Assembly: GCA_031406795.1 (NCBI GenBank)
Contig: JANOHV010000075.1
Span: 1-46,239 of the forward strand
From: Candidatus Rokuibacteriota bacterium
GTDB lineage: Bacteria; JAUVQV01; DATDCY01
Length of the DNA stretch: 46,239 bases
Direction of reading: 5' to 3'
Of this stretch, positions 25,343-46,239 are shown one piece after another; within the stretch, counting starts at the first letter, position 1; each line of letters begins with the position of its first letter. The notes under the pieces are model-generated. The model was not told where the DNA came from. It saw nothing but the letters and a program-made list of their open reading frames with translations, and did not search any database. The position numbers were made by a program, and so were the translations under genes.

Positions 25343-25441
25343 GGGAGCGGATGGGTCACTGGTGGGCCCCCCGGACTTCAAATCCGGTCGGCGGGCGCTA
25401 ATCACGTCCGCGGTAGGTTCGATTCCTACACGTTCCCGCCA
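25343..25441 (+). tRNA. selC: tRNA-Sec (anticodon UCA)
   Basis: Anticodon arm CCGGA-CTTCAAA-TCCGG, long variable arm, T arm GTAGG-TTCGATT-CCTAC, 3' GCCA. Confidence 0.93.
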
Positions 25442-25684: not shown

Positions 25685-26758
25685 CTAGCGGTCGCCCTCG
25701 GCCATCGCCTTGCCGAACGCGGCCCAGAACGGATCGACCCGGGGGTGCTCCAGCGTACGGATGCGGCCGCCCTCGGCGAGCGTGATCCCCTCGGCCTCCG
25801 GGAGCGTCTCGCCGATGACGGCGGCGGCAATGCCCTTCGCAGCGAGGCGAGCCAGAATTTCCGCCGTCCGGTGCTTCTTGCACGTCAGCACGAGCGTCCC
25901 CTCGCTGATCGACGTGAACGGGTCGATCGCGAAGAGGCGGCAGACCTTCTCGACCTCCTCCGGCACCATGATCCGCTCGCGCTCGATGCGCATGCCGACG
26001 CGCGAGGCCCGGGCGACCTCGTACAGGCCGCCCCAGAGGCCGCATTCGGTCGCATCGTGCATCGCGGTCACGCCGTCCTCGCGCACGCCCACGGATGCTG
26101 CGATCGTGGCTTCCTCGACGACGCTCATTTGTCCGAACATGGCGTCCGCCCGCCGGGCGAAATCGGCCCCGTAGGCCGCCGCGACGCGTTTCGGGAAGGT
26201 CGCGGCGAAGAGCGCCGTCGCCTCGATGGCCGGGCCCTTGGTGATCACGACGTCCTCGCCCGCCCCGGCCATCGCCGGCGTCACATAGCGATCGCGCGGG
26301 CCGGTGGCCATCACGGTTGCCCCGCCGATCATCGGGTACTCGCAGCCCTGGTAGCGCGCCGTGTGCCCGGCGATGACGGCGATGCCGAGCTTGTCGCACT
26401 CGGCGTGCATCGCGCGCCAGAGGGTGACGAACTGCTCCTTGGTGATGCCGAGCGGCAGGTTCAGGTCGATCGTCATCCACCGCGGCGCCAGCCCCGAGAC
26501 GGCCGCGTCCGAGGCGAGGATGTGCACCGCGAACCACGCCGAGCGCTCCCAGCCGTACTGCGGCACGACGAAGACCGGGTCGCACGTGACGGCCATGACG
26601 TTGCCGCCACCGATGTCCACCACGCCGATGTCCACCCCGTGCTGCGGCGGCACGAGCACCGCGGGGTCGCGGCGCCCAAGCCGCGGGTAAATGACTTCCT
26701 CGAAGATCTCGGGCGAGATCTTGCCGATCTCGGGCAGCTCGTGCACGTGCTCGTTCAT
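25685..26758 (-). CDS. AIR synthase/HypE/ThiL-superfamily protein
   Basis: IGKI, GVDIGV, TCDP, ASDAAVSG, AGHT, MHDATECG and ISEGTL motifs. Confidence 0.88.
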   Translation of the reverse strand: MNEHVHELPEIGKISPEIFEEVIYPRLGRRDPAVLVPPQHGVDIGVVDIGGGNVMAVTCDPVFVVPQYGWERSAWFAVHILASDAAVSGLAPRWMTIDLNLPLGITKEQFVTLWRAMHAECDKLGIAVIAGHTARYQGCEYPMIGGATVMATGPRDRYVTPAMAGAGEDVVITKGPAIEATALFAATFPKRVAAAYGADFARRADAMFGQMSVVEEATIAASVGVREDGVTAMHDATECGLWGGLYEVARASRVGMRIERERIMVPEEVEKVCRLFAIDPFTSISEGTLVLTCKKHRTAEILARLAAKGIAAAVIGETLPEAEGITLAEGGRIRTLEHPRVDPFWAAFGKAMAEGDR

Positions 26759-26761
26759 CGC

Positions 26762-26848
26762 TTTCCCTCCGCAGGCATTACCCTGACAGGTTGCGGGGTC
26801 GGCCCAGGCGGACCCTCTCAGCCGTCCGCAGACAGCTCCCCCAAGCAT
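26762..26848 (-). ncRNA. TPP riboswitch
   Basis: Minus strand GGGGGAGC...GCTGAGAG...GACCC..AACCTG..AGGGTAATGCCTGCGGAGGGA matches the THI-box consensus. Confidence 0.92.
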
Positions 26849-26855
26849 GGTCGGT

Positions 26856-29134: not shown

Positions 29135-29200
<66 letters not shown>

Positions 29201-29210
<10 letters not shown>

Positions 29211-38012: not shown

Positions 38013-39134
38013 CTAGAGCCGCATCGGCATCACGACACAGCGGTAGCCGTCGTCACCCAGGGGCCGCACGAGCGTGGGGCTCAGGATCTCGTTCATCTCG
38101 ATGATGACCTTCTCCTGCTCGATGACGGCGAAAACATCCTGCACATACCGGCCGTTCAGACCCAGTTCGATGTCGCCGCCGGTGAACTCGATTTCGACAT
38201 CCTCCGTGGCCTCGCCCAACTCCGGGTTGACGGCGGTCACGGCGACTTTGTCCGCCGAAAAACCAAAGCGCAGCAGGTTCACCCGGTCGGCGGTCACGGT
38301 GGAAACGCGGCGCACCGCGCGATAGAACGATTCGCGCTCGACGATGGCGACCCGGGTGCCCCCCGTCGGGATCACCTGGTGATAGTCGGGGAACTGCCCG
38401 TCCACCAGCCTCGTCACCAGCAGGCTCGCCCCGATGCTGATAAAGAGCCGGTTTTCCTGGAAGGACATTTCGACCGCCGAACCGATGTTCTCCTCGCCGA
38501 TGAGCTTGCGCACCTCGGCGATCGCCTTGCGCGGCACGATGACTCCGCGATTCCCGACGACCGCGGCCCGGCAGCGACGCTGGATGAAGGCCAGCCGGTG
38601 ACCGTCCGTGGCGATCAGCCGCAGATCGGCCTCGTCGCCGCTGACGGGCGCCACCTCGAGAAGAATGCCGTTGAGCGCCTGCCTCGTCTGATCGTGGGAC
38701 ATGGCAAAGGCGGTCTTCTCGATGGCTTCGGCGAGAAGCGCCGGGGGAATCTCGATCTTCTCTCCCTCCTGCCCGATCGGCAGGGCGGGAAAGTCGTCCT
38801 TCGGCAGACTCATCACCTTGAATCTGGCCCGGCCCATTTCGATCCGTAACCACCCCTTGTCGCCGTCGATCAGCCGGACATCGCCATCGGGCAACTCGCG
38901 CACGATCTCGAAGAGCTTCTTCGCCGGGGCGGTGACCACCCCCTCCTTGGCGATCTGCACCGGGTAGCGGCTGCGCAGGAAGATCTCCAGGTCCGTCGCC
39001 GACACGGCCAGTTCGGAACCGTGGGCTTCGAGCAGAACGCTCGAGAGAATCGGGACGGTGTTCTTCTTCTCGACGATCCCCTGGACCCGTGCGAGAGCAT
39101 TCGCGAGATCAGCCTTGGTGATGGTGATGTCCAT
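38013..39134 (-). CDS. dnaN: DNA polymerase III beta clamp
   Basis: ATDLE, ATDGHRLA, GQFPDY and VVMPMRL motifs. Confidence 0.98.
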   Translation of the reverse strand: MDITITKADLANALARVQGIVEKKNTVPILSSVLLEAHGSELAVSATDLEIFLRSRYPVQIAKEGVVTAPAKKLFEIVRELPDGDVRLIDGDKGWLRIEMGRARFKVMSLPKDDFPALPIGQEGEKIEIPPALLAEAIEKTAFAMSHDQTRQALNGILLEVAPVSGDEADLRLIATDGHRLAFIQRRCRAAVVGNRGVIVPRKAIAEVRKLIGEENIGSAVEMSFQENRLFISIGASLLVTRLVDGQFPDYHQVIPTGGTRVAIVERESFYRAVRRVSTVTADRVNLLRFGFSADKVAVTAVNPELGEATEDVEIEFTGGDIELGLNGRYVQDVFAVIEQEKVIIEMNEILSPTLVRPLGDDGYRCVVMPMRL

Positions 39135-39139
39135 GAGGT

Positions 39140-39363
39140 GTTTCCCCCCGTTCTTTACTAGTTGTTCGAACTATTAAAGAAAAACAACGTCGTTGTACTA
39201 GTACCTGTTGGAGCGGTGGAGAAAGAGAAAAAACCGAAGCGCAATCCGCGGTTGCCGACCGGGCAATGCTGTGGAGGAAGGAGGAAGTTATCCACGCTTT
39301 TGTGTTGCCGGAGGTTTCCACACGAAGCTGGGCCGCTGTCCACAGGAACAGTGTTGAAAGATC
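39140..39363 (-). other. oriC: Replication origin oriC (dnaA-dnaN intergenic region)
   Basis: DnaA-box-like TTATCCACG 39288, GTTTCCACA 39314 and CTGTCCACA 39336. Tandem boxes at 39206-39223 followed by GG, trio-like TAC TAG TAC AAC GAC and an AT-rich tract. Confidence 0.85.
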
Positions 39364-40701
39364 TCACGCCTGTATCCTCCGTGTGATCGTGTCGATCGTG
39401 TTCTGGACTTCGACGCTGGTCTTCTTCTTCTCGGCGATGATGTTCAGCGAGTGGATCACCGTCGAGTGGTCGCGGCCCCCGAACATCTTGCCGATCACCG
39501 GCAGCGAGGAGGAGGTCAACTGGCGGCACAGGTGCATCGCGAGCTGGCGCGGGTAGACCAGGTTCTGCGTGCGGCGCTTGGAGATCAGGTCGGAGAGCTT
39601 GATCCCGAAGTAGGTGGCGACCTCGCGCTTGATCTCGTCGATCGTGATCGTCTTCTCGCTGGCCGCGAGCATGTCCTTGAGGGTCTCGCGGGCGAACTCG
39701 ATCGTGATCTCGCGGTTGCCGAGCGAAGAGTACGCCCCGAGACGGACCAGGGCGCCCTCCAACTCGCGGATGTGCGACTTGATGGAACTGGCGACGAAGA
39801 GCGCCACTTCGTCGGGAATGGCGATCCCGTTCTGTTCGGCCTTCTTGCGCAGGATCGCGATCTTGGTCTCCAGGTCGGGCATCTGGATGTCGGCGATCAG
39901 GCCCCACTCGAAGCGCGATCGCAGCCGCTCCTCGAGATCCGGGATGTCGCGCGGCACCTTGTCCGAAGTGAGCACGATCTGCTTGTGCGACTCGTGGATC
40001 GAGTTGAAGGTGTGGAAGAACTCCTCCTGGGTCTTTTCCTTGCCCGCGATGAACTGGATATCGTCGATGAGCAGCAGTTCCATGTTCCGGTAGCGGTTGC
40101 GAAACGCCGACATGCGGTCGTAGCGGATGGATTGGATCAACTCGTTGATGAACGTCTCGGCGGTCAGGTACATGATGCGGGCGCCCGGGTTGCGCTCCAG
40201 GAATCGGTGCCCGATCGCATGCAGCAGATGGGTCTTGCCGAGACCGACGCCGCCGTAGAGAAAGAGCGGGTTGTAGGTCTTGGAGTGCCCGTCGGCAACG
40301 GCGAGGCTCGCCGCGTGCGCCATCTGGTTGCTGGAGCCCACGACGAACGTGTCGAAGGAATACTTGTTGTTGAGGACCGTGCCGCCGTGATGGATCGTCC
40401 GCGTGAAGGGCAGGTCATCCTGGCGCGGGCGCTCTTCCTCTGCCTTGCGCTCCGCCGGCTGGAAGACGACGGTGCACTCGCGCCCCGCGATCGCGGAGGC
40501 CGTCTCGCGGATCAGCACCTGGAAGTTCTCATTGAGCCAGTCCTTGAAGAATTTGCTGGGCACCGAAACGACGAGCGTCCCCTCGGAGAAGCGCTCCTGG
40601 AGCGTCGGGGAGAACCACGTCGAGAAGCTCTGTTCGTTGACGTGCGAGCGCACGCGCTCCTTGACCTGATCCCAGAGATCGAGAGGCTCCTGCGTGCTCA
40701 T
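39364..40701 (-). CDS. dnaA: Chromosomal replication initiator DnaA
   Basis: YNPLFLYGGVGLGKTHL, DDIQF, RLRSRFEWGL and GGRDHSTV motifs. Confidence 0.99.
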   Translation of the reverse strand: MSTQEPLDLWDQVKERVRSHVNEQSFSTWFSPTLQERFSEGTLVVSVPSKFFKDWLNENFQVLIRETASAIAGRECTVVFQPAERKAEEERPRQDDLPFTRTIHHGGTVLNNKYSFDTFVVGSSNQMAHAASLAVADGHSKTYNPLFLYGGVGLGKTHLLHAIGHRFLERNPGARIMYLTAETFINELIQSIRYDRMSAFRNRYRNMELLLIDDIQFIAGKEKTQEEFFHTFNSIHESHKQIVLTSDKVPRDIPDLEERLRSRFEWGLIADIQMPDLETKIAILRKKAEQNGIAIPDEVALFVASSIKSHIRELEGALVRLGAYSSLGNREITIEFARETLKDMLAASEKTITIDEIKREVATYFGIKLSDLISKRRTQNLVYPRQLAMHLCRQLTSSSLPVIGKMFGGRDHSTVIHSLNIIAEKKKTSVEVQNTIDTITRRIQA

Positions 40702-42180: not shown

Positions 42181-43449
42181 TTAGCCATCCGCCGGGCTTC
42201 TCACCATCAACCCCGGCCGGTTGAGCACGTGCGTGTAGATCATCGTCGTCGAGACATCCGAGTGCCCGAGCAGTTCCTGCACAGTGCGGATGTCCGCGCC
42301 GGATTCGAGCAGATGGGTCGCGAACGAGTGGCGCAGCGTGTGGCAACTCGCGCGTTTGGCGATCCCGGCGCGAGTCACGGCGGCCTTCACGGCCTTTTGC
42401 AGGACGCTCTCGTCCACGTGGTGCCGGCGAGTTCTTCCGGTTCCCGGCTCAATGCAGAGGCGTGCTGCTGGAAAGACATACTGCCAGGGCCATTCTCTCG
42501 GGGCTCCGGGGTACTTGCGTTCCAGGGCGGGCGGGAAGGTCGTGCCGAAGAACCCGGCCTCGCTATCGAGCCTCCAGAGGGCGCGGATCCGCTCCAGATG
42601 CTGGACAACCGCCTCCCGGTAGCGCTCGGGCAGTACCGACAGGCGGTCCTTGCGGCCCTTGCCCTCGCGCACCGTAATCTGCCGGCGCTCCAGGTCGAGA
42701 TCCTTGACCCTCAGAGTAATCAGCTCCTGCAGCCGCAGACCGGATCCGTACAGCAGGCTCGCCATCAGGGCGGTGTCCCCATTCATGGCCGCAAGGAGAC
42801 GCGAGATTTCGGCCCGGGTCAGCACAACGGGGATGAAGCGCGGTCGCTTGGATTTCTGGAAATCCCCCAGATCGCCGAGTTCCCTGCCCAGGGCCTGTTT
42901 GAACCAGAACACCAGAGCGTTGAGAGCCTGAGCCTGCGTCGATGCCGATACCATCCCGGCGACGACAAGCTGCTCCAGAAAAGCCCTGACGAGTGCGGCG
43001 TCGGATCCGACGGTCGGTCGGGCTTTGCGGAAAGCCACGAAGCGGCGAACCCACTGAGCGTACGACTCCTCGGTTCTGCGGGAGTAGCCCCGCGCACGAC
43101 AAGCGGCCCGCAATGGGTCAAGATCGCCATCAACCGTGCGCCCAGGGGGAGCATCCTCAACCACCTCCCAACGCTTGCCATACACTGCGGTAAGCAGTAA
43201 CCTCAACGAATAATACGCACTGCGGATTTTCCAGTCCTCGGCGCCGGGCGTGGATCGGAGGGTTGTCGTGAACGACTCCACATCTTCTCTGACTGCCGCA
43301 GGTAGCGGTTTTCCCTCGAGAAAACCAGCAAACCGCTCGACCCAACGCACGCACCACGGCCGCAGTGTCGCCGGCACCCCGGTGATTTCAAGTGCACGAA
43401 GATACGGCGTGTACCACGAAGCATCGGCGCAGAGCTTCCCGTCATCCAT
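42181..43449 (-). CDS. intI: Integron integrase (long form with extra N-terminal domain)
   Basis: YSRRTEESY, SASTQAQALNAL, LLYGSGLR, GKGRKDR, integron-specific ALERKYP..W.WQYVFPA..RRHH, HTLRHSFATHLL and LGH..VSTTMIYTH. Confidence 0.96.
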   Translation of the reverse strand: MDDGKLCADASWYTPYLRALEITGVPATLRPWCVRWVERFAGFLEGKPLPAAVREDVESFTTTLRSTPGAEDWKIRSAYYSLRLLLTAVYGKRWEVVEDAPPGRTVDGDLDPLRAACRARGYSRRTEESYAQWVRRFVAFRKARPTVGSDAALVRAFLEQLVVAGMVSASTQAQALNALVFWFKQALGRELGDLGDFQKSKRPRFIPVVLTRAEISRLLAAMNGDTALMASLLYGSGLRLQELITLRVKDLDLERRQITVREGKGRKDRLSVLPERYREAVVQHLERIRALWRLDSEAGFFGTTFPPALERKYPGAPREWPWQYVFPAARLCIEPGTGRTRRHHVDESVLQKAVKAAVTRAGIAKRASCHTLRHSFATHLLESGADIRTVQELLGHSDVSTTMIYTHVLNRPGLMVRSPADG

Positions 43450-43509
43450 GACCCATCCTCCCGCTTGGGCGACTGGGGTAGCAAAAGCCATGCTAGGCCG
43501 CCACCGCCC

Positions 43510-43574
43510 CGACTGGATAACACGGCGGCGGGTACGACTGGATAAAGCTGCCGCCACCTAATCAACTGTTAGCC
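43510..43574 (+). other. attI: attI site
   Basis: Core GTTAGCC (43568-43574) is the complement of the first attC R'' GGCTAAC; 11-bp direct repeats CGACTGGATAA upstream. Confidence 0.8.
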
Positions 43575-43579
43575 AAGAA

Positions 43580-43897
43580 ATGGAAAAGAAACTGTTCTCC
43601 AGTTCAGTGTTCGAGTCACTGACTGACGTTGATCGTCGATCGCGATTGGATCAAATGGAACAGGAACTCAAAGCAATCATCGGTCAGTGCTCGTCACCAC
43701 AGCAATTTATCCATCGAACCAAACAATCAGTCGAAATCCTCAGGTGTATGGGACACGATCTGTGGAACGTTGACTCAGACAAAAAGACATTTGAAATCTG
43801 GGAAAGTGAATACATCCGTCCAAAACTGATGGGAAGGCTCGTCGTCGCCTTCAAGTACCCCAATCAAGTGCACGTCGAATGGTCGAGCAAATTGTAA
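43580..43897 (+). CDS. Integron cassette 1: hypothetical protein
   Basis: Lower-GC ORF filling the attI-attC1 interval. Confidence 0.8.
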   Translation: MEKKLFSSSVFESLTDVDRRSRLDQMEQELKAIIGQCSSPQQFIHRTKQSVEILRCMGHDLWNVDSDKKTFEIWESEYIRPKLMGRLVVAFKYPNQVHVEWSSKL

Positions 43898-43900
43898 AAT

Positions 43901-44027
43901 GGCTAACCAGGCGTTGTAGCCGACGGATCACGCTTGCATTTCTGCCCTTTGAGGCTAAGGTCAATGCCAGCGGCAACGTTCTAATACGGGCAGGCAAGCG
44001 CGCCCGCGGCTAAACGCTACGTTAGCT
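43901..44027 (+). other. attC: attC site 1
   Basis: GGCTAAC-CAGGCGTTGTAGCCG...CGGCTAAACGCTAC-GTTAGCT; imperfect palindrome. Confidence 0.92.
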
Positions 44028-44040
44028 TTGAAAGGATAAG

Positions 44041-44613
44041 ATGACCAAGGAGCGGAAGGCAATTCCACGGGTGATCCGGGATGGGGTGCTCAAGGAATAT
44101 CATCACTCCTGTGCGATATGCGGTGGCAAGAATCCGCATTTGCACCACATCGATGAGAATCCGAACAATAACGAACCCATGAATCTTATCCCTCTGTGCC
44201 CGAACCACCATCTTCGAGACCAACATGATCCGACGTCACCACTTGAAGCCGGAATTCTTGTCCTATTCCGGAAATTCAAGGATCCAACAGTCTTGTCACC
44301 CCAATTCTACCCACTCTACAAACGTCTCAAAGTGCTTGACACGCATATTGCCAATATCAGGGACCCAGACGTTCTCAAACAAGACCTGAAAGATCTCATA
44401 GAATTTGTGTCTACATTGGCTATGGGACAGTACTATTCGAAGAAGATTAAGGAAATCATGAAGATCTCTTCTTGGGCCACCACAACGGAAGACATATTGA
44501 ATTTCCGCTCACCACAATCTCCCCAGTACCTGTTTCGAAATGAGAGGGAACAAATCGAGGAAATGGTTGTTGAACTTCTCCGTTACCAGGGATGGGAATA
44601 CAAAGCAAGCTAA
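44041..44613 (+). CDS. Integron cassette 2: HNH endonuclease domain protein
   Basis: CAICG..HLHHID..N...NLIPLCPNHH; stop codon lies inside the attC2 R''. Confidence 0.88.
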   Translation: MTKERKAIPRVIRDGVLKEYHHSCAICGGKNPHLHHIDENPNNNEPMNLIPLCPNHHLRDQHDPTSPLEAGILVLFRKFKDPTVLSPQFYPLYKRLKVLDTHIANIRDPDVLKQDLKDLIEFVSTLAMGQYYSKKIKEIMKISSWATTTEDILNFRSPQSPQYLFRNEREQIEEMVVELLRYQGWEYKAS

Positions 44614-44704
44614 CCAGGCGTTGTAGCCGACGATCCGGTCTGTCACGGTCTGTGCAGAGCACAGCCCGCGCCATCCCGTCCCGCGGTTAAACGCAACGTT
44701 AGGC
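44608..44704 (+). other. attC: attC site 2
   Basis: AGCTAAC (complement of GTTAGCT at 44021)...CGGTTAAACGCAAC-GTTAGGC. Confidence 0.92.
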
Positions 44705-44715
44705 GGAAAAATACA

Positions 44716-45189
44716 ATGACAACAGACCGGCCCCAGTTCATCGCAATCGCGTTTGCTGGCATCGTGACCATAGCAGTCGTCTTCCGGGCACTACATGGCA
44801 TACTGAAGGCCGCCATTGCATCAACTATCCTCAATGCATGGCCTAAATACATGCCCTCTGACTTTCAACCGAGTGCCATGTTTACGGTGCTCATCAATGT
44901 GTTTGTCGATGCTATCACTGCTCTTCCAGTTGCGGTCCTTGTCGCGATCTTCGCTCGAATACTTCTCAGAAGACAGATACTGCCAGTGGCTAGCCTGTCA
45001 GCTCTTCTTATGCTTGCCCTCGATAAGAGAGTTCATCATTTCGTTCGAAATGAGTACGACGAGAACTATCTCGCCTTCGTGCTGAGTGCGGCGATCGGTC
45101 CAATAGTTCTACTCATAGCATCTTTTGTGTCAGACAAGGCCAACACTTCGAAGCAAGGAGCAGAGAAAATGCCTAACCAGGCGTTGTAG
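44716..45189 (+). CDS. Integron cassette 3: hypothetical membrane protein (~4 TM)
   Basis: Four hydrophobic stretches; fills the attC2-attC3 interval. Confidence 0.8.
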   Translation: MTTDRPQFIAIAFAGIVTIAVVFRALHGILKAAIASTILNAWPKYMPSDFQPSAMFTVLINVFVDAITALPVAVLVAIFARILLRRQILPVASLSALLMLALDKRVHHFVRNEYDENYLAFVLSAAIGPIVLLIASFVSDKANTSKQGAEKMPNQAL

Positions 45190-45292
45190 CCGACAGTCAC
45201 GCTTGCATTTCTGCCCTTTGCGTTTAGAGTCGGCTCCAAGGGCAACTATGCAAATACGGGCAGGCAAGCGCGCCTGCGGCTAAACGCTACGT
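45171..45292 (+). other. attC: attC site 3, interrupted in R' by the intron
   Basis: GCCTAAC (complement of GTTAGGC at 44698)...CGGCTAAACGCTAC-GT, then GTGCG instead of TRRRY; interior close to attC1. Confidence 0.9.
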
Positions 45293-46100
45293 GTGCGAGG
45301 TCTCGAAACCATCATCTTGCGATCTGAAAGGAGATCGCCACACCAAGTGCCCTTGTGGGTGTGTAGGCAGGAGGCGGGCTGGCGTGGTAACACGGCGGTC
45401 GAACATGCCTCGACACGGCACCGCGAAGGCTCGCTCTGCAATGGGGCGGGTCGTACCCAGTCGGGGGTGCTGGCCAAACGTGCAGGCCGCAGCATAAAGC
45501 GAACAGTGCAGCCTCGTGAATTTAGGCCGGACGGCGATAGCTGGGAGAGTCCGGTAGCGGGATAAACCAACGCGAGTTGGCTACGCGCCGACCCTCTACG
45601 TAGAAGGGGGCCAGTGCCTGTCGGGAAGCAAAGGGCAAACGCACCGATGGGGGACCCGGGGTAAGGCTGACAGCATGCACGGACAGATGATGGAGGTAGG
45701 ACCTGAAATCCCACCGTACCCCGTCGTTCTCCGACGGCGGTAAGCGGGCGCCAAGTCGGGTGCAACCGGCAAGATGACCGTTACGGGCGGAGGGATGTCG
45801 GAGGGGCCGGAGAAGTGAAGATGGGCAGGAGAGAAGAGTCTGCCTGGAGCGTGCGGCCCTGCTTCGACCAAGTCTGTTTTTCAGGGAGGGAGGCATGAGT
45901 GCCGTCAAGGCTAGGAACATGCGAAACACGGTCCGAGCCCTGCAAAACACACTCTTGTGCAGCGAAACAGTCGCTGGATAGGAGATTCGGAGCCCTCTAC
46001 GATAAAGTGTATCGGGAGGACGTACTGCGGACGGCCTGGAAACAGGTCAGGGCGAACGATGGGGCGCCCGGAGTCGATCGGCAGAGTTTCGAGTACATCG
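45293..46100 (+). mobile_element. Group II intron, 5' part only (DI-DIII and start of the RT ORF)
   Basis: 5' GTGCGA; AGCGAA..GCCTCG..GCCGAC EBS1 stem; TCGGAGGGGCC...GGAGCG..GGCCCT DIII-like segment; RT0 motif downstream; no DV/DVI seen. Confidence 0.88.
45895..46100 (+). pseudogene. ltrA: Group II intron reverse transcriptase/maturase fragment
   Basis: GGAGG SD and ATG 45895 [20 protein letters not shown], frameshift near 45955, then [41 protein letters not shown]; similarity ends near 46100. Confidence 0.88.
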
Positions 46101-46198
46101 TAAGTCCTCGCCCTACCCCGACTGCACATTTTCCTCGTCGGCAGGCGTCTTCGTGATGGCCGCCGGGTCACGGTCGAGCGCCGGTCCGGCCGGGCGGT

Positions 46199-46239
46199 CT
46201 ACTGCAGGGTGTTCTTCTTCAACTCCGCGGGGAGGAAGG
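46199..46239 (-). CDS. Probable 3' end of a chromosomal gene entering from beyond the window
   Basis: FLPAELKKNTLQ* with high-GC3 codons. Confidence 0.35.
   Translation of the reverse strand, partial: FLPAELKKNTLQ

Follow-up and report, generated by a model that had tools for sequence, protein, structure and literature searches.

Group II introns found in integrons have so far been treated almost wholly as introns of the IIC-attC kind, which are antisense, enter the bottom strand and recognise the attC recombination site by its structure. In the published passages that describe them, these introns are inserted into the bottom strand at the R'' core (TTGT/T), antisense to the gene cassettes, with an intron-binding site 1 (IBS1) of 3-4 bp and no second exon-binding site (EBS2) (PMC3001079, PMC7923331). 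A passage on another type describes UHB.I2, an intron of class IIB1/CL1 in an integron array from a soda lake, which has the boundaries UUGCG..GU and lies immediately after an attC in cassette sense (Sonbol and Siam 2021, PMC7923331), and the same source mentions fragments of class E introns in an attC cluster, reported in 2021 (PMC7923331). Our literature search on introns at attC sites found no non-IIC case beyond this article (PMC7923331). Outside integrons, the hallmarks that passages of PMC3753933 list for classes IIE and IIF are a IIB-like and compact ribozyme, a 5-nt loop in domain V, EBS1 and EBS2 placed in DId and an alpha' stem-loop in DId3, together with a long structured domain VI in class IIF. 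Reverse transcriptases (RTs) ending without an endonuclease domain are reported for classes E and F in passages of PMC3552965, and RmInt1 (class D, IIB3), whose RT has no endonuclease domain, is described in part of PMC8914252 as homing by pairing of EBS and IBS into the single-stranded lagging-strand template. Group II introns associated with attC are thereby already known as a kind, and what the locus described here adds is the lineage and the exact site.

This locus is located near the end of a 46,239-nt stretch from a Candidatus Rokuibacteriota bacterium, which is one whole contig of its genome (JANOHV010000075.1 of assembly GCA_031406795.1; G000:C235 in our labels) and is called the window throughout. 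Behind the integron integrase gene intI, three cassette open reading frames (ORFs) follow on the + strand, each closed by an attC site (attC1, attC2 and attC3). The inverted cores R'' (RYYYAAC) and R' (GTTRRRY) of this array beside intI read GGCTAAC...GTTAGCT in attC1, AGCTAAC...GTTAGGC in attC2, and GCCTAAC...GT in attC3, where the core is broken off by the intron. The sequence of attC3 ends with CGGCTAAACGCTACGT at 45292, the same 16-mer as in attC1, and GTGCGAG begins at 45293. The intron shares the + strand with the cassette ORFs, and the attC sites run from R'' to R' on it as well, with intI on the - strand; the insertion is thus a top-strand one in cassette sense, which splits the R' core of attC3 between GT and T. 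In our reading, 45293-46099 is most probably the 5' part of a IIB-like group II intron that retrohomed into attC3, with pairing of both EBS1 and EBS2 choosing the target.

A first-pass annotation made from the letters alone had pointed out that the six exon bases before the intron, CTACGT, have their exact reverse complement, ACGTAG, in domain I, and every coordinate and string it gave is present in the sequence. ACGTAG is located at 45598-45603 within GCCGAC-CCT-CTACGTAGA-AGGG, that is, inside GCCGACCCTCTACGTAGAAGGG, and it occurs once in the 807-nt intron part. In 20,000 mononucleotide shuffles, ACGTAG appeared somewhere in the first 420 nt in 10.9%, and together with TTTAG 40-120 nt upstream in 0.16%, so that for this one sequence alone a single ACGTAG match is weak. 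EBS1 stands beyond chance because RNAalifold places it in a terminal loop and because, among homologs, changes in this loop go along with changes at the exon end.

Relatives were collected by scanning a 270-aa fragment of the RT against genome contigs, which left 80 loci. When nhmmer was run with domains I-III of the window intron, 45 of the 80 matched, 19 of them from intron position 2-4 on. The alignment, A3, combines 18 of those 19 loci with the window and one copy from a genome of the same genus (G002, contig C13), giving 20 rows that extend from exon -20 to about intron position 345; 18 of the 20 introns are distinct in their EBS/IBS motifs. Left out were L016, in which an internal deletion removes the EBS1 region, four loci whose 5' end is cut by a contig end (L028, L039, L094 and L018), and about 25 distant loci, mostly Bryobacterales records, which match only from about position 70-180 on and whose 5' ends and EBS1 loops were not placeable by simple motifs.

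With no structure supplied, RNAalifold on A3 places ACGUAG in the 9-nt terminal loop of a hairpin whose inner stem is 97.5% paired and whose outer 3-bp stem is invariant, which is where the first-pass annotation had put EBS1. Between the 7 loop columns (ACGTAGA in the window) and the final 7 bases of the exon, pairing is seen in 85.0% of cells, with two-sided changes in every one of the 7 pairs. Thirteen different loop 7-mers face 16 different exon 7-mers, as in the exon ends TGAATAG (loop CTATTCA), AAATTAT (loop ATAATTT), AGTGAAT (loop ATTCACT), TTGGCAT (loop ATGCTAA) and TGGGCGT (loop ACGTTTA, with three G-U pairs). The homologs thus do not keep ACGTAG, and their loops change together with the exon ends, the opposite of what had been named as the counter-case. 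On average, a loop forms 5.83 of 7 pairs with its own exon and 3.82 of 7 with foreign exons; the window loop forms 6 of 7 with its own, equalled by one of 16 foreign exons. Taken alone, the 14 EBS/IBS pairs are paired in 81.1% of cells, compared with 55.2 +/- 2.1 in 500 shuffles, none of which reached the observed value, and a shift of the partner by 1-3 columns leaves 33.7-42.9% paired. The pair-count and pair-type measures are less extreme, being reached by 11 and 3 of the 500 shuffles. In all, the comparative support corresponds to about a dozen independent exon/guide combinations.

EBS2 is found about 75 nt upstream of EBS1, in a stretch that RNAalifold leaves unpaired. The alignment columns involved, 283-291, have 77.1% of cells paired with exon columns 7-13 (exon -14..-8), with two-sided changes in 6 of the 7 pairs; L023 (CAAAGCT/AGCTTTG) and L063 (CAAATCT/AGATTTG) give a clear example of compensation. 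The longest EBS2 run has a mean of 6.44 with the own exon and 3.31 with foreign exons. Judging from this alignment, the loop holding TTTAG is the EBS2 of the family. The suggestion that TTTAG acts as EBS2 had thus fallen on the right loop, one that covaries with exon -14..-8, while for the window copy itself the assignment is tentative, with a pairing that is short and off the family register by one base.

The 5' boundary in the window is the true 5' end of the intron, because the two same-genus copies, 86-89% identical, align with it from intron base 1. Among 21 introns, the 5' end reads GUACG in 15, GUGCG in 4, GUAUG in 1 and AUACG in 1, compared with the consensus GUGYG. The GUGCG start is shared by the window and its three closest relatives, namely both G002 copies and L016. 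Regarding the view of this boundary as a retrohoming junction, the boundary itself is secured in this way, and the retrohoming route would be the most plausible path to it.

About 600 nt of intron precede the RT ORF. The window RT and some homologs have FADD where others have YADD, and since this motif is mixed within the family, an attempt to assign the class by it was dropped. The RT gene is interrupted at 46100 by a repeat that starts GTAAGTCCTCGCC, and the same 119-140 nt are found at four other contig ends of the genome (G000 C221, C37, C128 and C212) with 99-100% identity. The interior of the repeat is absent from the contigs of this genome, and no transposase was seen in them. In the public sequencing runs X1-X3, contigs of 2503-2505 nt begin exactly at 46100, as expected of a repeated element; an insertion sequence of about 2.5 kb is its probable identity.

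For a comparison of alleles, Logan contigs of four public runs (X1-X4), available as contigs only, were aligned to window 43800-46239. Joints between 44023-44028 and 45166-45175 were disregarded, since their sides comprise just 20-30 letters of repeated attC sequence. Run X1 is identical to the window over 45504-46100. Three others (contigs of X2, X3 and X4) carry GAA behind 45608, giving back the family's GGGGAAGGCC beside the EBS1 stem, and CC behind 45956, which brings the RT N-terminus into a single frame, as in the homologs. Beyond 46100, contigs of X1 and X3 continue for 187 letters unlike the window repeat, and a contig of X2 continues for 8 letters (AGGAAGTG) with the RT frame intact; these samples therefore hold an allele without the repeat insertion. 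Measured against those alleles, the window copy bears three lesions, a 3-nt deletion, a 2-nt frameshift and the repeat insertion at 46100, and its EBS1 letters are the same as in X2. The window copy is thus broken and has probably lost mobility of its own, so that an RT acting in trans would be needed. A different kind of decay was observed in L016 (2755-3428), where domain I position ~276 is joined straight to the RT coding region and the EBS1 hairpin is lost; the same joint is present in a contig of run X1, with its loose end at window 45567.

A presumed 3' part of the intron is located on another contig of the genome (C198, from 72364 down to 71493), comprising the C-terminus of the RT with its maturase domain, then domains V and VI, the latter long, and the terminal sequence ...CUACUCUAC. 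This part matches PF08388 with 63.1 bits (cut-off 23) and TIGR04416, as a fragment, with 179.9 bits (cut-off 300). Its domain V reads GAGCCGUACCGGGGAAAACCCGAUGUCCGGUUC and in the minimum-energy fold has a 5-nt loop, GAAAA, on a 4-bp upper helix; domain VI takes up about 108 nt from domain V to the 3' end in one long irregular stem, and over 20 loci share the conserved end ...CUACUCUAC. The 3' exon starts TCGCC, and joining ...CTACGT to TCGCC gives a full R' core, GTTCGCC, like that of the neighbouring attC sites, suggesting that the part on C198 belongs to the window copy. Behind the presumed 3' end, one cassette follows (G000:C198:71440-70930) that is not closed by an attC, as if the array ended there; ordinary GC-rich genes come next. 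By eye, we presume that this cassette resembles a toxin-antitoxin pair of the BrnT/BrnA type.

The target sequence is not confined to attC3. The 13-mer CTAAACGCTACGT is present at 9 places in the genome, of which one carries the window intron, two carry a second intron type and 6 are empty, four of these having T at +1, attC1 among them. In line with the first-pass annotation, attC1 holds the 16-mer at 44007-44022, followed by TAGC and hence unoccupied, and attC2 has ...TAAACGCAACGT at 44688-44699. Over 124 nt, attC1 and attC3 are 85% identical, with the last 16 bases the same and the last ~30 in common. The second intron type, unrelated to the first, starts TTGCGAC, 3 nt downstream of the site of the window intron, in two other attC sites, and therefore two intron lineages use one attC end in one genome. 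Its copies (L002/L008, G000:C157:13121 down to 10909, and G000:C255:121) have the form TTGCG...GGT with an RT in a 534-aa open frame and stand after GTTCG and GTTGG. Two shorter pieces were also noted: L003 (G000:C157:17482-17239), a second-type fragment in which a domain I piece is followed by about 20 nt and then by domains V-VI, internally deleted and cut by the contig end, and L005 (G000:C210, about 1810-2290), an intron piece lacking an ORF, with a domain V of its own (RF00029, 37.3 bits), that ends inside an attC and replaces its 5' half. The contig C210 has a small attC cluster beside ordinary genes.

When 5 genomes of the same order and 6 of the same phylum were compared, one other genome, the same-genus G002, had copies, L012 on contig C13 and L013/L076 on contig C15. 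These are 986 and 987 nt long, lack an ORF, keep the first ~35 nt of the RT gene and are inserted in two other attC-like sites, again at GT/T, with 3' exons TGGGC and TGGCA; in the C13 copy, domain V contains mismatches. Both copies have ACGTTA as EBS1, a worse match to CTACGT than the ACGTAG of the window. In the family as a whole, an exon end CGT with T at +1 is found in 8 of 21 introns (window, G002 C13, L076, L016, L019, L022, L035 and L032). For L019, L022 and L076, the site obtained by joining the flanks forms one long hairpin whose closing point is the junction, L032 has a 5-base match to the expected R'' 100 nt upstream, and for L035 no R'' was found. The other family members, mostly Desulfobacteraceae-type records, are inserted at unrelated sites with 7+7 bp pairing. 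In run X2, the intron start is joined on a 68-nt contig to ...GCGGCTAAACGCTACGT, and the 13 letters before this are found in this genome only in the attC2 spacer; with so short a flank in a contig-only run, this hints weakly at occupation of a second attC. A blastn search of a plasmid collection with the intron (distant mode) gave no match. That sister attC sites may be targets thus gains from the four empty sites with the 13-mer and T, the related copies in other attC sites and this 68-nt contig, while the window copy, being broken, is probably immobile alone.

With regard to class, this is a IIB-like ribozyme with hallmarks of IIE/IIF, a likeness drawn from the described hallmarks. In full-length relatives, the RT/maturase ends right after the maturase domain and has no endonuclease domain, so that none is expected in the window intron; the full-length homolog in L023 scores 384.9 bits on TIGR04416. 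Among solved structures, the C-terminal 270 aa of the RT alone ranked the T.el4h RT first. The small DId3 hairpin, which adjoins the EBS1 hairpin, is a candidate for the terminal-loop alpha' of IIE/IIF, and a by-eye search for its alpha partner gave nothing convincing.

In the mechanism that we propose, the intron RNA would reverse-splice into the cassette-sense DNA strand of attC3 and would then be reverse-transcribed. EBS1 (ACGUAG), in the terminal loop of its DId3 hairpin, would pair with the last six exon bases, CTACGT, and EBS2 (AUUUAG) with CTAAA at -13..-9, the two jointly reading the conserved L'-R' end of the attC sites of this genome, which would lead to insertion between GT and T. 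As for IIB introns with an endonuclease-less RT, the ribonucleoprotein would reverse-splice into single-stranded DNA, for which the lagging-strand template may serve as target, and a replication primer would start synthesis of the complementary DNA. Lying in sense, the intron could be spliced from cassette transcripts. The usual crossover point of the integrase IntI in R' is G/TT. The intron splits R' one base past this point, and therefore recombination at attC3 should be disabled.

The array may lie next to the replication origin. A dnaA-dnaN pair was found at 38013-40701 (TIGR00362, 567.9 bits; TIGR00663, 299.9 bits), about 1.5 kb from the integron, and the GC skew, negative as far as about 39 kb, is close to zero beyond, the stretch to the right being 6 kb long. 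If the origin is located at dnaA, the + strand of the integron would be the lagging-strand template, the preferred strand of RmInt1, which is suggestive only. The positions of all features are collected in Table 1. The true start of intI is probably further inside the longest ORF. In the ORF of cassette 2 (44041-44613) there is a weak HNH-like match to an IscB model (E 5.6e-4). Elsewhere in the window, Rfam at gathering thresholds finds a selenocysteine tRNA (69.2 bits), a TPP (thiamine pyrophosphate) riboswitch (57.8 bits) and an ordinary tRNA, at 25343-25437, 26747-26852 and 29138-29210, all unrelated to the intron.

Table 1. Features of the integron and of the interrupted attC3 in the window (coordinates of the 46,239-nt contig).
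Feature	Position	Strand	Remarks
Integron integrase gene intI, longest ORF	42181..43557	-	TIGR02249, 403.1 bits (cut-off 265), residues 146-457; divergent from the + cassettes
attC1	43901..44027	+	R'' GGCTAAC ... CGGCTAAACGCTACGT, then TAGCT; unoccupied copy of the intron target
attC2	44608..44704	+	R'' AGCTAAC ... GGTTAAACGCAACGT, then TAGGC; two bases of the target differ
attC3 up to the intron	45171..45292	+	R'' GCCTAAC at 45171-45177; R' core cut after GT (45291-45292)
IBS2 of the window copy (tentative), CTAAA, exon -13..-9	45280..45284	+	complementary to 45521-45525; one base off the family's -14..-8
IBS1, CTACGT, exon -6..-1	45287..45292	+	reverse complement of 45598-45603 without mismatch; covariation of these columns across the family
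Group II intron, 5' part	45293..46099	+	domains I-III, start of domain IV, first ~67 RT codons; GUGCG start
EBS2 loop, AUUUAG	45520..45525	+	single-stranded, just 5' of hairpin 45527-45532/45549-45554; TTTAG at 45521-45525
Hairpin after EBS2, CCGGAC / GUCCGG, conserved loop	45527..45554	+	100% paired; two-sided changes in 4 of 6 pairs
Small DId3 hairpin, CCAAC GCGA GUUGG	45567..45580	+	97% paired; two-sided changes in 5 of 5 pairs; candidate terminal-loop alpha' of IIE/IIF
EBS1 hairpin	45587..45611	+	outer stem 45587-45589/45609-45611, inner stem 45592-45595/45605-45608, loop 45596-45604 (CUACGUAGA)
Start of the intron-encoded RT/maturase	45895..46099	+	frameshifted near 45956; two frames needed, one frame in homologs
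End of a multi-copy repeat	46100..46239		interrupts the RT gene and ends the contig; starts GTAAGTCCTCGCC

Several results weigh against a IIB-like intron guided into attC3 by its EBS1 and EBS2. On the protein side, the solved structures nearest to the full-length family RT (L023) are IIC RTs (206.4 and 181.2 bits), followed by LtrA (160.6) and the T.el4h RT (149.9), and some kinship with class C is conceivable there. At gathering thresholds, Rfam gives no intron match at the window locus, and both matches below them stay short of their gathering scores: RF02003 (group-II-D1D4-4) at 45325-45497 with 32.9 bits (E 3.5e-5; gathering score 49), where the G002 copies score 32.0 and 29.4 bits, and RF00029 at C198 with 26.7 bits (gathering score 40). 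Folding energies are no better than those of shuffles (z +1.10 for the domain I piece with both loops, -0.54 for domains V-VI). The rows of A3 are related, with four near-identical copies from one genome and three further close groups, and the shuffling controls accordingly overstate their independence. In the window copy the EBS2 pairing has just 5 bp with its register shifted by one base, and 4 of 17 foreign exons do as well; the EBS2 run is 3 in G002 C13 and in L027, and EBS1 is weak with its own exon in G002 C13 (4/7), L033 (4/7) and L022 (5/7). For a third exon-binding site (EBS3), no domain I column complementary to the first base of the 3' exon was found in 18 introns, a search of low power as this base is T in 13 of them. 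Finally, no contig bridges the window and C198.

It is unlikely, in our estimate, that the intron finds attC mainly as a structure in the manner of IIC introns, with a top-strand hairpin, an IBS1 of 3-4 bp (ACGU) and T at +1 as the determinants and with the extra EBS1 bases and EBS2 playing a minor role at attC. Such recognition would suit the CGT/T that is common to all 8 attC-type insertions, the two same-genus copies, which form just 4-5 of 7 pairs in EBS1 and one of which (C13) lies in an attC with no real EBS2 pairing, the closeness of the full-length RT to IIC RTs, and the report, in passages of PMC3753933, that EBS2-IBS2 is dispensable for self-splicing of IIE and IIF introns in vitro. 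However, EBS2 covaries with exon -14..-8 across the family, including the attC-type members L035, L032 and L019 (runs of 7-9), non-attC members use 7+7 bp with no hairpin, and the ribozyme takes up ~600 nt before the ORF and has kept an EBS2 loop, which is lacking in IIC introns as described in passages of PMC3753933. The same covariation, at exactly these columns and falling to 34-43% pairing when slid by 1-3 columns, together with a loop position that RNAalifold predicts, leaves hardly any weight on chance complementarity with the true EBS1 elsewhere in domain I, for which the frequency of a 6-mer match in shuffles of the 420-nt domain I (10.9%) would speak.

The junction could also have been formed by recombination, if a segment with the intron was brought in by an exchange between attC sites, either homologous or mediated by IntI. 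The likeness of attC1 to attC3 (85%, last 16 bases identical) would favour such an exchange, and the run X2 contig with the intron start behind an attC with another spacer could be its product. A split R' core should, though, make a poor substrate for IntI, independent copies in other genomes are inserted at the same GT/T, and the junction sequence equals the EBS1/EBS2 prediction even if an exchange occurred later, and we consider this origin very improbable. Retrohoming guided by EBS1 and EBS2 stays the preferred reading. A wider proposal, to which we give somewhat less than an even chance, is that the top strand of attC has become the special target of a IIB-like lineage, separate from IIC-attC and present in several phyla, which reads the L'-R' end by EBS1 and EBS2 and enters at GT/T, the mirror of the IIC-attC position. 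Splicing in cassette sense would then allow cheap spread through arrays, and because integron arrays usually have the bottom strand of attC on the leading-strand template, the exposed lagging-strand template, which endonuclease-less introns prefer, would be the top strand.

A different type of ribozyme would in this way reach the same recombination site by ordinary guide pairing, on the opposite strand and in cassette sense. If the lineage is active, the split R' core may lock neighbouring cassettes together, yet the intron would be removable at the RNA level, and such introns would provide natural examples of attC-directed guide sequences. For annotation, an interrupted attC beside GUGCG or GUACG is not necessarily occupied by an IIC-attC intron.

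Compared with the known systems, the window intron resembles the IIC-attC introns (S.ma.I2 and relatives) in lying within attC after the GT of a GTT core and in having an RT without an endonuclease domain, and both are often found at last cassettes. Unlike them, it is in the top strand at R' (ACGT/T), in cassette sense, with an EBS1 pairing of 6-7 bp and a covarying EBS2, and it has ~600 nt before its ORF, compared with 412 nt for a whole IIC ribozyme in passages of PMC3753933. Three defining features of IIC-attC introns are lacking in it, and it is not of the classical IIC-attC kind. With UHB.I2, as far as passages of PMC7923331 describe it, it shares the IIB type, the cassette orientation, the location at the 3' end of attC and the IBS1 and IBS2 marked in the 5' exon; it differs from UHB.I2, which has a CL1-class RT, in starting GUGCG, in lying inside R' and in its RT family. 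It is the second intron type of this genome (TTGCG...GGT) whose boundaries are like those of UHB.I2 (PMC7923331). With the IIE/IIF introns (Cl.be.I2, Pe.th.I2 and Ge.ur.I1) it has in common the compact IIB-like layout, the 5-nt loop of domain V, the long domain VI and EBS1 and EBS2 in DId, as well as, in its full-length relatives, an RT without an endonuclease domain; a small extra DId3 hairpin is a candidate for their alpha', and the passages of PMC3753933 and PMC3552965 on these classes describe no homing to attC. The likeness to RmInt1 is one of mechanism only, with RT class and target both different. The mechanism would be ordinary for a IIB-like intron, and it is in strand, sense and mode of recognition that the intron in attC3 differs from the classical IIC-attC introns.

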